This document shows, piece by piece, positions 45,179 through 52,861 of a stretch of 64,000 nt of DNA (its first letter is position 1; the number at the start of each line of letters is the position of its first letter). The stretch comes from a virus. Below the pieces are notes generated by a model that was not told the DNA's origin, did not search any database, and worked only from the letters and a program-made list of their open reading frames with translations. The stretch is from the IMG/VR virus record IMGVR_UViG_3300037541_000804, positions 64,001 through 128,000 of that record, one strand, 5' to 3'. The translations under genes were made by a program, and so were the position numbers.

Positions 45179-47174
45179 GGGTTATTCGATTTCTCCAAAC
45201 AAGAGACCAAAGGCTTTCCAGCCGTATTTTTCAAACACTGGAATTGCTGGCATAGCAATAATTCCGACAATAAACAGTTCGTAAATGTGGTCGAGGATTT
45301 TCATGTTATTTTGTGTGTTTAAACTTAACCGACAACCTGCCACCCTGCAATCATTTTTTCGGTTTCTTTAATAGCGGCGAAGTCTGGCGTTAGTTTGCTT
45401 TTAAGCGGCACGATTCGTTCAATGGCAATCCATTTTTCGCCGTGAAGGGTTGTCAAGTCGGAGGCGTATTTTTTAGCGGCCTTTTTGGTTGTCGGGTAGT
45501 GGTAAAGCATGGGTGAGTATATATCAGTTATTTTCGCCCGTCAAACAAATTCTTCCCACTCTTTTTCTTTCATCGCGGCATACTGTTCGGCGGAAAGCGC
45601 GAAAACGCTGATTAGCGCGTCTGGTTCGGCTTGCACGATGAAATCGCCGACTGACAAGGGAGAAATGCAAGAAACAGCTTCGCCGTCAACCATGAACGAG
45701 CAAAAGAACCCGCTTTCTTGTTTCTTTTTTGTTTTTAGGGTGCTCAATTGTTTGTCGATTTCGACGATCAACTGGCCCTTTTCTTTTCTGGGGATTTCAG
45801 AATCGGCCAACAAATCATTTTTGGCCGCGATTAGTCCAACGCGGGACATTTTTTGGATTTCTTGGACAAAGGTTAAGAGATTGTGGGGCATGGTTTTAAT
45901 ATACAAAATAATTACCGCACGTCAACCACATTCTCCAACTTCACCATGACAAAAGGTGATTGATTTTTGTCTTCCAACTCAAGCCTAGTTTTCTTTGGAG
46001 ACAATTCGCTAGACAAAACCATGTTTTCAATCGTTTCTTCGGAGACTTGTTTTCCGTCCATGAAGAAAATGCTTTTTGGTTTGTTGCCAGAAATATTTAC
46101 GCCCAAAGATGTATTTCCGTTAAAGCCTTCATAGAGTTTTAGGCCGTCTTGATAAAAACACCGTTTAACACCATTGGGAAGATGGGGAACTTCACGCTCT
46201 TCTGACTGGATGCCAGCCTTTACATTGGCCGTATTCGCATATTCAACGCCGAACAATCCTTGGATTTGAGACTGTTTCTCAATATGAGCGGTAAATCCCT
46301 TTTTGAGCTTAACAGGTCGGCGTGTGGTTAGGCTAAAAATTGAGCCTTTGGGGCGGTTTGCTAGGCGGCGGGTAATTTCGGTGATTTTCATTTTATTTAA
46401 GTCTTTTAGGTAATTCTACGCCATATTTCAACCAGTGCCAAATCATTGTTTGGGCCGTGCCTTGTTCATGTTGCCAGCCGAGATTTAACTCAGGATGATT
46501 TTTCGTTTGGCGCTTTTTCATCAATCAATAAAGCGTTAAACTCCTTCTCTGTCAACGGGTTTGAGTCAATATATTCGCCGTCTTTGGGTGATTCCAAGGT
46601 GTAGAGAATTTCAATCAGTTCTTTGGATTTTTCTTCCTGAACGGCGAGGGCAATTTCTTTCTTTAAGTTACTGGTTTTCAACGCGATAGCGCCAGCGACG
46701 ACTTGAAAGAGCGGCGATTTCTCGCGGGGTTTAAGGGAATCTCGCAATTCTTTATTGTCGGCCAAAAGAGGCAAAACTGGCATTTTTACTTGGCGCAAGA
46801 ACATTCTTGTTTTATCATCGCGGCCCAAACAAAAGAATTCATTAGTTTGTCGGCGCTTCTTCTGTTCGGTCAAGTAATAGAATGCGTTGTTGACTTGATC
46901 TACTGTAGCGAATTGAGTGTATTTGTCTTTAATCATGGTTTCAATTTACGTTTATTATTCCAGTTGTCAAGATGTTTTTGACACATATCAATCCAACCTA
47001 TCAACGCCTCGTCTTTGGTTAGAATCGCCCGCTTCTTTACCTCAAACAAGAATTCGGCGTATTCTTTCGGGCGCGAAGAGTAATAGCGATTGATTTGCCA
47101 ATAGTCGAACCCCCTTACAAGGCCCAAGTGTTTAATACAGCGAAAGAGGTTTTTTAGGGATTGCATGATTTTAT

Positions 47175-48476
47175 TAGTAAATTGACGAAAAGAAAACCCC
47201 TTCGTTTACGGAGGGGATGAATTTTCGCATTGTTTTAGGAAATTTTGTAAAAGTTAGTGTAATATAATTTGAATGACGCATCGCGGCTACAAATATCGCA
47301 TATATCCAACAGCTTGTCAAGAGGGAATCTTGCGCAAAACGATTGGATCGTGTAGATTTGTGTACAATTGGGCGCTGGCACAGCGGCGAGAGGCGTGGGT
47401 GACGAGTAAAAAAAGCGTTTCTTACAGCGCAACGTCCAAAGGTTTGACCGAACTCAAGGAGTCGCCCGAGAAAGTTTGGCTTAACGACGTTTCAAGCGTT
47501 TGCTTACAACAAAGTTTGCGAAATCTTGATTTGGCGTTTAACAACTTTTTTCGCAAAAAATCCGCATATCCATCTTTCAAGAGTCGAAAAAATGGTGGCA
47601 GTGCGCGATTTATGGATAACGCTTTCCAAATTAAAGGAGATGGCTTGTTTCTTGCAAAAATTAAAACGCCAATCGTGATTAAGTGGTCGCGTCAGCTTTC
47701 CAGCGCTCCTAATTCATGCACAATTTCCCAAAACGCTGCGGGTCAGTGGTTTGCATCGTTCTTGTGCGAGGAAGAAATACCTCACTTGCCGCCAACGAAT
47801 AACAAGGTTGGCATTGACGTTGGAATTGAAAACTTTGCCACACTTTCAGACGGGCGAAAATTTCAATCTCCGAAAGCGATTCGTAAGTTGCGCAAAAAGT
47901 TAGCATGCTTGCAAAAGCGTCACTCGCGCAAGCAAAAAGGCTCTAAAAACCGTGAACGCGCTCGCAAAAAGGTTGCCCGCGTTCACCAGCACATCGCAGA
48001 TGTGCGTAAAGATTTTCTCCACAAACTGTCAACTCAACTCGTTCGCGAAAACCAAGCGATTGCAATTGAGGATTTGGCGGTGTCAAACATGGTTAAGAAC
48101 CGCAAACTTTCTCGCTGTATCAGCGAGCAAGGCTGGCGCGACTTTCGCACTATGCTTGAATACAAGTGCGAATGGTATGGGCGAGAACTACTTGTCGTTG
48201 ACAGGTTTTTTCCCTCATCCAAGACCTGTTCTTGTTGTGGAGCGAAAGCAGAGTTAACATTGAAAGATCGTGTTTGGAGTTGCGCCTGTGGCGCAACGCA
48301 TGATCGCGACGTGAACGCCGCGAAAAACATTTTGGCCGCTGGACAAGCGGTTGCAGCCTGTGGAGCTGACGGAAGACCAACGAAGAACTACGTTCTTCGC
48401 GGCAGTCGGCAACGAAGCAGGAAACCTTCTTAGCAACGAGAAGAATCCCCGTCGTTCACGGCGGGGAGTATGTCAA
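47175..48476 (+). mobile_element. IS200/IS605-family TnpB-only element, copy 1
   Basis: Left hairpin CCCCTTCG-TTTA-CGGAGGGG (47197-47216); right end GAAT-CCCCGTCG..CGGCGGGG..TCAA (to 48476). Left boundary inferred after TTAT; no tnpA. Confidence 0.8.
47273..48433 (+). CDS. tnpB: RNA-guided endonuclease TnpB
   Basis: YKYRIYP; RuvC GIDVG / IEDL / DRDVNAAKNI; CSCC..CAC zinc ribbon. Confidence 0.95.
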   Translation: MTHRGYKYRIYPTACQEGILRKTIGSCRFVYNWALAQRREAWVTSKKSVSYSATSKGLTELKESPEKVWLNDVSSVCLQQSLRNLDLAFNNFFRKKSAYPSFKSRKNGGSARFMDNAFQIKGDGLFLAKIKTPIVIKWSRQLSSAPNSCTISQNAAGQWFASFLCEEEIPHLPPTNNKVGIDVGIENFATLSDGRKFQSPKAIRKLRKKLACLQKRHSRKQKGSKNRERARKKVARVHQHIADVRKDFLHKLSTQLVRENQAIAIEDLAVSNMVKNRKLSRCISEQGWRDFRTMLEYKCEWYGRELLVVDRFFPSSKTCSCCGAKAELTLKDRVWSCACGATHDRDVNAAKNILAAGQAVAACGADGRPTKNYVLRGSRQRSRKPS

Positions 48477-49584: not shown

Positions 49585-50669
49585 GTGAGTATATTAGATG
49601 ATTAATTTTCACTGTCAAGAATTACTGCGGAAAACAGTGTTTCGCCATCCCTTTCGGCGGATTCCTTACGACTGATTTCATTACAGGCCACAAGCGCTTT
49701 GTAATTTTCGCTTTCTGAGAAGTCTTGAAGAAGGATTTTTGAAATTGCTTCAAACAGTTCTTCCTTTTGTTTCGGGGAGACTGGTTGAGAAGCATAATGA
49801 TTCCAGCAAGCAGAGACCATGTTAGAGCATTCTTTGAGCACTTGTTGTTTTGTTATCATAGCGTGAGTATATTAAGTGGTTAATCGGGCCGTGTCAACTG
49901 AATTGGAAAGCTTCAACGACAATTTCTGGCTCTTTTTCAACTTTCGACGGAATTACTTGAAACGTTTGGGCGAAGTTTTTTGCTGCCCGTTTTTGAAGAT
50001 CAACTCGCGAAGCCTTGAATTCTTCGTCATCAGTGAATCCGAGTGCGCGGAGTTGGTTGATTGTCATAGTGACAAAGCTGGTTGAGCCGTGGGTTCTCAT
50101 GTGGTTATTTGTTGAAAAAGTCTAGGTCAGTAAGGAGCTTTAGTCCAGCGAATTCTTGGGTTGGAACTTTTTTATCCCAATATTTCATGCGAGTTTCAAA
50201 AGAGGCGTGTTGGCAATCGTTCATGATAATACTCTCCATTATTTTTGCCATTAGTCAAACCCATTCCCAAACACTTCATCGTAATCGTAATTAAAATGCT
50301 CACAATAATCAAACACTGTGTCCTTTTGGCGGCGGGTTACATCGTCGCCCCTAAATGTGGATTTCCTACAATCGCCAAGCCATGATAGGTTTTTAACGCA
50401 CATCCAGCCTTGTGACAGAAGCCAGCTTTCCCATGATTGGTCAAAGCCGCTCTTTGAATATCGGCCCTTTTTACGAGAATTTTCATTCGCGCCGCATTTA
50501 AAAACCGCCAAATAGGTTGCAGCAATCTCATGTTTTGCGCCGCTAAATCCGTAAAAGTCGCCGTTTGGCGCAATCCACGCATTATATTCAAAATTAGCGT
50601 CTGGAATCTCTTGTGGGATTTTGTCTTGGAAGATTATGTTGATCTTTTTCATCCAGCCAATATACCCAT

Positions 50670-51113
50670 TTACTTCCCCTTGTCCAGTCTTTTGTATCCC
50701 CAAGTTTTGCGGCGATTTGCTTCGTGCCACTCAATAGGTTCTCCGTGTAGGCAATTATCGTAATAAGCATCAAAGATTACGCCGTTCTTAATTACTTGCA
50801 AGTGTTCGGTGGTAAACACCAAATATGTGCCGCGTTTGAATTTATCAACTGATTTTAAAATCGGGCGATTCTTTAGCCAAACGGTTTTTCTCTTTCGGCC
50901 AAAGTTTTTGGTCAGAGAGAGGGCTTCATCCCACGTCATATATTTGCGCCAAGCGTAGATTTTCTTTTTCGGCCAATTCTTTGACTTGCGCAATTTTCCA
51001 AGTCGCCATTGGACTTTGTAAACTGGTTCTCCCGTGATTAGGGAAACAGCCACCGTTCCACAAGAGAAATCACACTCGGGAAAGTCGGCCCGATTAAAGG
51101 TTTTCAACTTCAT
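50670..51113 (-). CDS. Papain-like (C39-type) peptidase-like protein
   Basis: SCGTVAVSLITG ... EHLQVI...IFD. Confidence 0.45.
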   Translation of the reverse strand: MKLKTFNRADFPECDFSCGTVAVSLITGEPVYKVQWRLGKLRKSKNWPKKKIYAWRKYMTWDEALSLTKNFGRKRKTVWLKNRPILKSVDKFKRGTYLVFTTEHLQVIKNGVIFDAYYDNCLHGEPIEWHEANRRKTWGYKRLDKGK

Positions 51114-51158
51114 CTCTTATTTTGGCCGAAAATAACGAACAAATCAAGAAAAAAAGAT

Positions 51159-51256
51159 TGAACGCGACAAGATTTGAACTTGTTCTCTCCATTTGCGTGC
51201 CTACTCCAGAATTAACTGTCTCGGACTTGAGTATGCTACCATTACATTACGCGCTC
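51159..51256 (-). tRNA. tRNA-like RNA with an expanded anticodon/variable region (identity unassignable)
   Basis: Acceptor GAGCGCG/CGCGTTC, D arm ATGT-AATGGTA-GCAT, T arm ACAAG-TTCAAAT-CTTGT; 48 nt between the arms instead of about 22. Confidence 0.65.
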
Positions 51257-51260
51257 AAAT

Positions 51261-51348
51261 TGGAAATGAGAATTGCCACTTTCGATACTACGAAAAGTCC
51301 CTAATCCTCCCTTGCGGGTAGTGGCCCGTTTTGCATTAGGCTCTCATT
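51261..51348 (-). ncRNA. 88-nt pseudoknotted RNA with acceptor-like stem and 3' CCA
   Basis: AATGAGA/TCTCATT + T + CCA; crossing helices CCTAAT/ATTAGG and GCCACT/AGTGGC; CCC-GCAA-GGG hairpin. Confidence 0.55.
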
Positions 51349-51360
51349 GTTTAGAAATTA

Positions 51361-51406
51361 TTGCCTGTCTCTCCAAGCTGTCACCGATGGCCTTTACCAA
51401 ACCACG
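51361..51406 (-). ncRNA. c4-antisense-like RNA 3' part
   Basis: GGTGACA followed by GCTTG-GAGAGA-CAGGC hairpin; resemblance from memory only. Confidence 0.35.
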
Positions 51407-52718
51407 CGCAAAGAAAGCCCCTTCCTTTAGGTAGGGGATGAATTTGCGGTCAAACAAAATAATTAAAAAGTTTTTGGGTGTTTTTTAACAATTAGTGTAA
51501 TATATGGTGATTGCACCACCGCGCTTACAAATTCCGAATTTATCCAACGACAGCGCAAGAACAAATCTTGCGGCAGACGATTGGGTGTACGCGGTTCATC
51601 TATAATTGGGCGCTGGCCCAAAGAAGGGAGGCATGGGTGCAAGATAAGAAAAACATGACCTATGCAAAGTCTTGCAAAGCGTTGACGGAGTTAAAAGACT
51701 CGCCAGAGCGCGAGTGGCTTAACGATGTGTCAAGCGTTTGCTTGCAACAAAGCCTCAATAACTTGGACGTTGCATTCGGCAATTTCTTTAAGAAGCGGGC
51801 GGCATATCCCAGCTTTAAGTCTCGCAAAAACGGTGGTTCTGCGCGGTTTATGGGCAACGCCTTTCGGCTGAAAGGCGAAAGCCTCTTCCTCGCGAAGATT
51901 AAAACGCCAATTAAAGTTCAATGGTCGCGCCCGCTTTCCAGCGTTCCGAACTCCATTACCGTTTCTCAAAACGCCAGCGGTCAATGGTTTGCGTCGTTCC
52001 TTTGTGAGGAGGAAATTGAAAAGCTTCCGCCTTCCAACGGTCGAATCGGTATCGACGTTGGTATTGAAAATTTTGCCACACTCTCGGATGGGTGCAAATT
52101 TCAATCTCCAAAAGCAATTCGTAAACTGCGCAAGAAAATGGCACGCCTGCAAAAGAGTCATTCGCGTAAGCAAAAAGGCTCCAAAAACCGTGAACGCACT
52201 CGCAAAAAAGTCGCCCGCCTTCACCAGCATATTTCAGATGTGCGCAAAGATTTTCTCCACAAACTGTCAACTCAACTCGTTCGCGAAAACCAAGCGATAG
52301 CGTTAGAAGACTTGTCTGTATCAAACATGGTTAAGAACCGCAAACTTTCTCGCTGTATCAGCGAGCAAGGCTGGCGAGACTTTCGCACCATGCTTGAATA
52401 CAAATGCGAATGGTATGGGCGCGAGCTACTAATAGTAGATCGTTGGTTTCCAAGCAGCAAAACCTGCTCATGTTGTGGAGCGAAGGCTAGCTTTGGCCTA
52501 GAAACAAGGCAATGGACGTGTGGCGGCTGCGGCGCTAGCCATGACCGAGACGTTAACGCCGCAAAAAACATTTTGGCCGCTGGACAAGCGGTGTCAGACT
52601 GTGGAGTGGACGGAAGACCAACGAAGAACTATGTTCTTCGGGGCAGGACACTACGAAGCAGTAAATCAAAGGCGCGAGCCAAGGAATCCCCGTCTCTTTA
52701 GGGCGGGGAGGATGTCAA
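51398..52718 (+). mobile_element. IS200/IS605-family TnpB-only element, copy 2
   Basis: TTAC then AAAG-CCCCTTCC..GGTAGGGG left end; GAAT-CCCCGTC..GGCGGGG..TCAA right end. IS608-like signals; left boundary inferred. Confidence 0.8.
51511..52701 (+). CDS. tnpB: RNA-guided endonuclease TnpB
   Basis: Intact RuvC D/E/D motifs and zinc ribbon; TTG start 9 nt after GTGTAAT, same spacing as copy 1. Confidence 0.95.
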   Translation: MHHRAYKFRIYPTTAQEQILRQTIGCTRFIYNWALAQRREAWVQDKKNMTYAKSCKALTELKDSPEREWLNDVSSVCLQQSLNNLDVAFGNFFKKRAAYPSFKSRKNGGSARFMGNAFRLKGESLFLAKIKTPIKVQWSRPLSSVPNSITVSQNASGQWFASFLCEEEIEKLPPSNGRIGIDVGIENFATLSDGCKFQSPKAIRKLRKKMARLQKSHSRKQKGSKNRERTRKKVARLHQHISDVRKDFLHKLSTQLVRENQAIALEDLSVSNMVKNRKLSRCISEQGWRDFRTMLEYKCEWYGRELLIVDRWFPSSKTCSCCGAKASFGLETRQWTCGGCGASHDRDVNAAKNILAAGQAVSDCGVDGRPTKNYVLRGRTLRSSKSKARAKESPSL

Positions 52719-52728
52719 CTGTCTAATA

Positions 52729-52861
52729 AAACTTTAGCACGCTAAATTCGTTCCGTCAATCCCCAAGACACAATATCGAGGGGCGAAACCATTAACCGTT
52801 GGTTCCAGCAATCAACCCATTTGTAGGGTGCCTATCGCGTTTAGGCACGGTGCTAAAGTTT
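52729..52861. ncRNA. Candidate 133-nt multi-stem RNA
   Basis: 12-bp terminal inverted repeat AAACTTTAGCAC/GTGCTAAAGTTT enclosing four hairpins; intergenic. Confidence 0.5.

Follow-up and report, generated by a model that had tools for sequence, protein, structure and literature searches.

A conserved, sharply bounded family of small structured RNAs with a tRNA acceptor-like end in uncultivated phages

Background

RNA islands composed of tRNA look-alikes are increasingly seen in phage genomes. In phage T4 the genes rnaC (species 1) and rnaD (species 2) encode small stable RNAs that are not tRNAs but lie head-to-tail with tRNA genes; both are co-transcribed with the tRNAs and released by tRNA-processing enzymes. 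Self-cleaving RNAs are found in such surroundings as well. The theta ribozymes, which are HDV-like, adjoin phage tRNAs, and HDV-like ribozymes carry a catalytic cytosine at the first position of J4/2, the mutation of which inactivates them (PMC10879173). tRNA-like t-elements that set the ends of transcripts are also established (PMC1920247). Finally, the acceptor end of tRNA is by itself a target for toxins: a minihelix of acceptor stem and CCA suffices for recognition and modification by a toxSAS defence toxin (PMC11559606), and MenT toxins act on tRNA acceptor ends (PMC10435456).

Here we describe an 88-nt element from a window of 64,000 nt, comprising bases 64001-128000 of a 165,329-bp IMG/VR virus record whose completeness was rated by CheckV as complete. 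The element is a clean case among RNAs of this kind: it is short and sharply bounded, its core is nearly invariant across very different base compositions, and of the features of a tRNA it has only those of the acceptor end.

The 88-nt element belongs to a conserved family

An initial annotation, made from the letters alone, had picked out a minus-strand RNA ending 4 nt before a tRNA-like gene, and its reading of the letters, strand and coordinates was correct (Table 1). Taken by itself, the 88-nt sequence could be due to chance. Shuffled sequences reach minimum free energies just as good (z -0.35), so that single-sequence thermodynamics is uninformative here. A perfect 7-bp stem followed by NCCA within a span of 70-125 nt occurs 47 times in the 165-kb genome, compared with 16.8 ± 3.3 times in shuffles, and the majority of the 47 are AT-rich chance stems. 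It is the homologues that settle the reality of the element.

Homologues were sought with patterns built from its unpaired segments. The first pattern found four in IMG/VR (L004, L007, L009 and L010) and the second two more (L028 and L029), while a pattern scan of JGI metagenomes added three (L016, L018 and L019); the three other patterns run on IMG/VR gave nothing beyond these loci and chance matches. The family therefore has ten members, the window and nine homologues, in IMG/VR and JGI contigs of uncultivated phages. The element was absent from the close syntenic relatives L002 and L003. A core pattern gave no match in 185,579 representative prokaryote genomes (one per species, GTDB), exact long-word scans for the element gave nothing or chance matches only, and BLAST against GenBank phages found no match to the element or to the 20 kb around it.

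The covariance model R1 scores the nine other contigs at 102-118 bits (E about 1e-22 to 1e-26), with exactly one copy per phage record. The homologues are 86-89 nt long, and the ten sequences form four groups that range in G+C content from 42 to 59%. Counted from the first base, BLAST similarity between distant contigs and groups is confined to about -9 to +87/92, so that the conserved unit coincides with the outer stem and the CCA. A gathering scan of the whole window against Rfam 15, together with permissive scans at the element and its homologues, matched only the neighbouring tRNA-like genes, and ARAGORN reported no tRNA or tmRNA in the window. We conclude that this is a real, previously uncatalogued family of small structured RNA genes, conserved, covarying and sharply bounded. 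The undescribed non-coding RNA postulated in the initial annotation is thereby supported by two of the checks it had named, Infernal against Rfam (no family matched on the element) and a homologue search (nine homologues, with covariation in the helices P2 and P4 described below). A coding reading was rejected: in the window ATG-AGA-GCC-TAA stops after three codons, and the frame is not kept in the homologues.

Secondary structure and covariation

Table 1. Positions in the window of the 88-nt element, its structural parts and adjacent features
Feature	Position	Strand	Evidence or remark
tRNA-like gene, 98 nt	51159..51256	-	Rfam tRNA 40.7 bits; missed by ARAGORN
Small RNA gene, 88 nt	51261..51348	-	Covariance model R1: 109.2 bits
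Discriminator-like U and CCA	51261..51264	-	U 9/10, CC 10/10, A 8/10
Outer stem, 3' strand UCUCAUU	51265..51271	-	Pairing in alignment; RNAalifold
P2, 3' strand AGUGGC (core UGGC 51275-51278)	51275..51280	-	Covariation
P4 hairpin C(U)UUUCG-UAGUAU-CGAAAG	51279..51297	-	Covariation
Proposed P1, 3' strand AUUAGG	51300..51305	-	Consistently pairable: AGG (51300-51302) and A44 (51305) only
P3 mini-hairpin CCC-GCAA-GGG	51309..51318	-	Stem invariant in alignment
P2, 5' strand GCCACU (core GCCA 51322-51325)	51320..51325	-	Compensatory changes; 100% paired
5' junction CCUAAUGCAAAACGG	51326..51340	-	Invariant save Y at position 11
Outer (acceptor-like) stem, 5' strand AAUGAGA	51342..51348	-	Paired in 70/70 cells
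Promoter-like site GTGACA-16-AATAAT	51357..51384	-	8 nt upstream of the RNA; consensus scan, 10/12 matches
IS605-type element, copy 2	51398..52718	+	tnpB 51511-52701; Pfam OrfB_IS605, Cas12f1-like_TNB, HTH

All pairing counts are based on alignment A2, which holds the ten related sequences. Overall 95.8% of the cells are paired; column shuffles give 85.4%, and sliding the partners by one to three columns gives 35-52%. The shuffle controls overstate significance, the members being few and related to one another. RNAalifold independently predicted the outer stem, P2, P3 and P4.

The outer stem bears out the 7-bp acceptor-like stem with discriminator and CCA that had been proposed from the single sequence (Table 1). 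Its terminal pair is A-U in eight members and C-G in two. Because the other six of the seven pairs never vary, the evidence for this helix consists of complementarity and one compensatory event. G8 (51341) and U77 (51272) could form an extra G-U pair, the eighth of the outer stem.

P2 and P4 are supported by covariation. In the P2 core each of the four pairs has changed on both sides, and pairing is never lost. The final two pairs of P2 (CU/AG) compete with the base of P4, the AG being common to both; L004 favours P4. In P4 five of the seven pairs show double changes, and the stems found in other members are UUCCAA/UUGGAA, UCUGUCG/CGGCAGA and UGGCCG/CGGCCA. The initial annotation had left this region, GACUUUUCGUAGUAU CGAA, single-stranded, which proved mistaken. 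The loop of the P3 mini-hairpin is GCAA, GUGA or GAAA, that is, GNRA throughout the family. In P2 and P4 taken together, G-U pairs exceed A-C by six to two. The G-U excess and the GNRA loops together favour the minus strand, so that the argument for this strand made earlier from the GNRA loop holds. The orientation of the element, which is that of the tRNA-like genes, also speaks for this strand.

It had also been proposed that two 6-bp helices cross. One of them, GCCACU/AGUGGC, is P2 and stands, with compensatory changes in its four core pairs. The other, CCUAAU/AUUAGG (P1), is mostly unsupported: what is left of it is CCY/RGG and one U-A pair. The first three nucleotides of the invariant 5' junction (51338-51340) form the 5' strand of this possible helix. 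CC/GG does not vary, and as third pair three members have U-A, three C-G and four U-G, so that CCY/RGG is always pairable. The middle two pairs are broken in five and four of the ten members, respectively, and the last U-A is invariant. CCY could alternatively pair with neighbouring G runs, and the case for P1 is weak because there are only two independent C-G events. A CCY/RGG pseudoknot of 3 bp, with which one further U-A pair is consistent, is nevertheless plausible.

The covariation supports a fold in which the outer stem, P2 and P4 would be stacked into a rod of roughly 20 bp, with one nearly uninterrupted 3' strand common to all three helices. On its 5' side the rod has two large, almost invariant bulges. 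The first is GCCYAAUGCAAAACGG and the second comprises the CCC-GNRA-GGG mini-hairpin followed by AGGANNRGGGGAC; the two may be zipped together by the 3-bp CCY/RGG pseudoknot. The outer stem (7-8 bp) and P2 (4-6 bp) add up to 12-14 bp, and the acceptor/T stack of tRNA has 12 bp. A bulge of 2-3 nt separates the two helices, which we infer to stack coaxially at close to the length of the tRNA stack.

The 3' end and the flanking sequences

The 3' terminus of the element reads UCUCAUU-U-CCA, after which four nucleotides, AUUU, separate it from the tRNA-like gene. The exceptions to CCA are CCU in L004 and CCC in L019. Closely similar surroundings are seen at real tRNA genes of these phages. In the phage of the window tRNA-Glu and tRNA-Met encode N-CCA followed by a U-rich trailer, tRNA-Met ending in U-CCA-AUUUU, and real tRNAs of L007 and L009 are preceded by leaders like uucuuaauaa and followed by trailers like auuuau. 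The leader of the element, UUUCUUAAAU, and its trailer, AUUUU, closely resemble these L007 and L009 flanks; an AU-rich leader (..UUAAUAAU) and an N-CCA-AUUU trailer are thus common to the element and to the real tRNA genes of the same phages. The conserved CC(A) end, the tRNA-like genes found at a distance of 4-11 nt in three loci and the tRNA-type flanks would fit maturation by tRNA-processing enzymes. Lacking a T arm and an elbow, however, the element would at best be a minimal substrate for RNase P. With its AU-rich sequence and its first pair A1-U72 (C1-G72 in two members), the outer stem differs from the acceptor stems common among bacterial tRNAs and so mimics no obvious tRNA.

It might be argued that the tRNA-like end is coincidental and that the element is an aptamer-like RNA binding a ligand or a protein, with the outer stem as nothing but its closing helix. 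A closing helix, a compact core, invariant junctions and a GNRA loop are indeed the usual build of an aptamer, and the 47 cases mentioned above illustrate that a 7-bp stem with NCCA is frequent by chance in this genome. The U-CC(A), however, is conserved although it is part of no helix, and conservation stops just behind it; the flanks agree with those of real tRNA genes, and there is neither a consistent downstream gene nor an expression platform. We consider this explanation unlikely, although it deserves to be kept in mind.

RNA islands and genomic neighbourhood

The tRNA-like gene next to the element has a 41-nt insert at the anticodon region and no encoded CCA. A homologue scoring 37.9 bits (L034:1596-1693) lies 3' of the element in a 148-kb relative. 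Between the window and L034 compensatory changes were seen in the acceptor, D and T stems, and the central loop is GUUAAU in one and GAAA in the other. Since the central loops differ, no anticodon is conserved and the gene is a non-decoding tRNA look-alike. Another look-alike of the window's phage may be present outside the window at G000:133635-133754 (-), where ARAGORN reported a 120-nt 'tRNA-Ser with intron' with a T arm and an ACC end.

In the 148-kb relative (L028/L034) the element is placed between two tRNA-like genes, 11 nt after the one and 4 nt before the other. In L004 a tRNA-like module consisting of acceptor stem and T arm ends about 13 nt upstream of it. Upstream spacers of 11-13 nt leave no room for a promoter, which implies co-transcription in these two phages. 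An RNA island of about 820 nt without ORFs (L034:880-1700, G003:54680-55500) surrounds the element of L034; in it at least three further modules with a T arm and an acceptor stem have abnormal middles and give weak partial matches to tmRNA or tRNA.

In five other contigs (L007, L009, L010, L018 and L029) the element is directly preceded by a structured non-tRNA RNA of 150-170 nt, here called X. It had no match in Rfam, and its stems covary between contigs: in X (L007:1640-1785 and its counterparts in L009, L010, L018 and L029) a covarying closing stem UUGCCUGCCG/CGGCGGCAGGCA and an inner stem GCGAGAGA/UCUCUCGC were observed. A shorter paralogue, X-prime, occurs in L033 and L034. No tRNA-like gene was seen by the element in L016 and L019. 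In these GC-rich contigs conservation goes on for about 90 nt past the element (L016:5772-5860 and L019), giving 96% identity over 181 nt in total, and the downstream part, which has a stem UG(ccg)CCGGA...UCCGGCA, may be another cassette. At the corresponding element-less site of L002 (L002:2419-2680; L003 is alike) an 18-bp perfect inverted repeat surrounds about 125 nt and is followed by an 8-bp stem-closed module and a U run. This intergenic site seems to be a swap point for RNA cassettes.

A promoter-like site precedes the element in the window (Table 1). The motif GGTGACAG-N15/16-AATAAT (or ATTTTA) is kept before the first RNA cassette in the window (51357-51384, -), in L034 (1360-1390) and in L033 (1300-1330), the cassette behind it being the 88-nt RNA, a tRNA-like gene and X, respectively. 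To stand ahead of whichever cassette comes first is how a promoter would behave, and we regard the motif as a putative promoter.

The protein-coding neighbours differ from locus to locus and include an RNA ligase in L018, an HNH endonuclease in L010 and a helicase in L004; no protein partner conserved across the loci was found. The RNA ligase (L018:958-1938, +; PF09414 with a PHA02142 OB domain) directly follows the element and was the sole neighbour of RNA-repair type that we saw. The nucleotidyltransferase domain PF01743 (CCA-adding) and the RNA ligase domain PF09414 were absent from the four phage records searched. Only the phage of the window has a GGQ domain, apart from a weak match in one relative.

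The changing neighbourhood might suggest that the element does nothing in trans and is a cis-acting element for punctuation or stability, comparable to the t-element of plant mitochondria, whose stem and NCCA would recruit RNase P and 3' trimming enzymes and so fix where the RNA before it ends and the RNA after it begins. The element always separates two cassettes or closes an RNA island, with AU-rich spacers around it, as such a role would demand; the neighbours (X RNA, tRNA-like genes, ORFs) do change between phages, and the t-elements referred to above provide a precedent. A mere signal, however, would not need some 50 invariant bulge and junction positions across contigs of 42-59% G+C, and the ordinary tRNA-like genes of the same islands could serve the purpose. 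On balance we think this role quite improbable.

IS605-type elements near the RNA gene

The IS605-type element listed in Table 1 is the second of two copies. Its TnpB is 80% identical at the amino acid level to that of copy 1 (47273-48433). Homology between the copies runs from 51407 to 52718 and the 88-nt element is consequently outside the IS. Both copies (~47170-48476 and ~51398-52718, both +) are tnpB-only, with end hairpins and right ends ..TGTCAA, and a third hairpin resembling the left end was noticed at genome position 53269. TTTAC is found just outside the left end of copy 2. This copy has inserted in the RNA island, so that the promoter-like motif and the 88-nt RNA are now separated from a stem-closed element of 133 nt (52729-52861). 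The nearest Atlas clusters of the TnpB are mostly cyanobacterial, which suggests a cyanophage, as a lead only. A TnpB guide RNA was considered for the 88-nt element and rejected: the element is on the opposite strand and beyond the left end of the IS, and other members of the family have no tnpB nearby.

With an IS605-type insertion about 50 nt away, varying neighbourhoods and sharp boundaries, one might think of the element as acting at the DNA level, either as a recombination site or as a miniature mobile element with 7-bp terminal inverted repeats. This we consider extremely unlikely. The compensatory changes include G-U pairs that work on this strand only, and the GNRA loop is likewise strand-specific. 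Moreover, each genome has only one copy, we saw no target-site duplication, and the 'inverted repeats' would not call for an interior as conserved as this one.

Proposed maturation and role

The analysis establishes the family with its boundaries, the helices P2 and P4, the GNRA loop, the strand and the genomic setting; processing, stability and function of the element are matters that we infer. The explanation that we favour, with a confidence somewhat short of even, is that it would be a stable RNA released by RNase P and 3' trimming (or a CCA-adding enzyme), with the stem and NCCA as a handle and an invariant core that binds a factor. The element would be transcribed together with its neighbours in the RNA island. 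RNase P would then cut at its first base, and the 3' side would be trimmed back to the encoded CCA, or to CC with the A provided by a CCA-adding enzyme. The product would be a stable RNA with a tRNA-acceptor-like end. In this RNA the outer stem and NCCA would serve for maturation and stability, and the invariant core would be the working part, binding a conserved host or phage factor. Our most specific guess is that it could act as a decoy or substrate for an enzyme reading the acceptor stem and CCA. This is also the most specific idea open to testing, because some anti-phage toxins read only these parts of a tRNA.

One could go further and imagine a minimal, non-decoding mimic of the acceptor end that freshwater phages would direct against host enzymes of tRNA 3' ends, whether as a sponge or sacrificial substrate for CCA-modifying defence toxins or as an inhibitor of tRNA maturation. 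Or else the invariant core might be the active site of a new class of small ribozyme at work in phage RNA islands. Proposals of this reach are speculative, and we would give them only a small chance of being right.

Whatever its role, a construct of fewer than 90 nt addresses whether tRNA-processing enzymes release non-tRNA cargo in phages. It could also help to tell whether acceptor-end mimicry plays a part in the conflict between phage and host over tRNAs, and whether an HDV-type helix order has been taken up for purposes other than self-cleavage. The alignment and the covariance model would let the family enter RNA databases.

Comparison with known systems

The element is not an HDV-like ribozyme, a tRNA or a homologue of T4 rnaC or rnaD, and it belongs to no family of Rfam 15. 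Its likeness to the HDV-like ribozymes lies in the order of the helices. Of the order P1-P2-P3-P1'-P4-P2' it has P2, P3 and P4 in the same sequence, with a 3-bp P3 hairpin directly after P2, and the topology would be HDV-like if the weakly supported crossing helix P1 forms. As in ribozyme cores, the junctions are nearly invariant and the stems covary. Together with the location near phage tRNA-type genes, in which the theta ribozymes are similar, this could point to a new small self-cleaving ribozyme that would cut up a polycistronic transcript of the RNA island. The details speak against it. The J4/2 cytosine has no counterpart in any of the ten members, because P4 runs directly into P2 in all of them (..AAAG/UGGC and ..GGAAG/CGGU, the slash marking the boundary). 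In HDV-like ribozymes P1.1 joins L3 to J1/4; here L3 is a tetraloop of GNRA type, so that G50-A51 have no partner. The initial annotation had likewise set the ribozyme aside, and the missing junction cytosine and the tetraloop in place of L3 prove it right in this. An HDV-like P1 has 6-7 bp at the cleavage site, whereas that of the element has 3-4 supported base pairs at most and no G-U start. The whole fold is enclosed by the conserved outer stem. Unlike HDV-like leaders, what lies 5' of the would-be cleavage site does not vary and is base-paired. The spacer to upstream tRNA-like genes is 11-13 nt and not 0-5 nt, and a cmscan of 50600-52000 with E up to 10 reported no ribozyme family (HDV_ribozyme, CPEB3, drz). 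Self-cleavage is therefore very unlikely.

With tRNA (RF00005) the element shares the acceptor end only, namely the 7-bp stem, the discriminator base and the 3' CCA. The D, anticodon and T arms (with a GTTCRANYC-type loop) are absent and the supported helices do not make a cloverleaf; neither the models of the tRNA clan, run on the 88 nt with E up to 10, nor ARAGORN gave a match. The tRNA-like domain of tmRNA differs in having a T arm and G3-U70, where the element has U-A at position 3-70. The Rfam models for tmRNA, YrlA and C4 and the tmRNA search of ARAGORN were silent on the element. What it has in common with the mimics of the top half of tRNA (the acceptor/T minihelix, the tmRNA domain, the YrlA Y RNAs) is a 7-bp stem, an unpaired base and CCA.

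Like rnaC and rnaD of T4, the element is a small gene for a non-tRNA RNA, head-to-tail with a tRNA-type gene. T4 rnaD starts 1 nt after tRNA-Arg, and the element ends 4 nt before the tRNA-like gene. The T4 RNAs are larger (139 and 119 nt compared with 88 nt), and rnaC ends in a canonical T arm and acceptor strand, whereas the element has no T arm. Run with filters off on the 10-kb T4 locus, R1 gave a best score of 10.5 bits (E 0.79), which was not on rnaC or rnaD. One nucleotide past the CCA of tRNA-Arg, rnaD (L036, AF158101, 5166-5173, -) reads AUGAGAA, and it has AAUGAGA in common with the 5' end of the element. As the covariance model finds no homology, this resemblance is probably due to chance.

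The last comparison concerns the toxins that act on acceptor ends. The determinants of FaRel2 are G1-C72, C2-G71, G4-C69 and G5-C68, from which the outer stem of the element differs, and the likeness is an analogy of mechanism only. It consists in the fact that toxSAS enzymes (FaRel2, CapRel) and MenT read the first acceptor pairs and the CCA, of which the invariant stem and NCCA of the element are the minimal form that could be bound.
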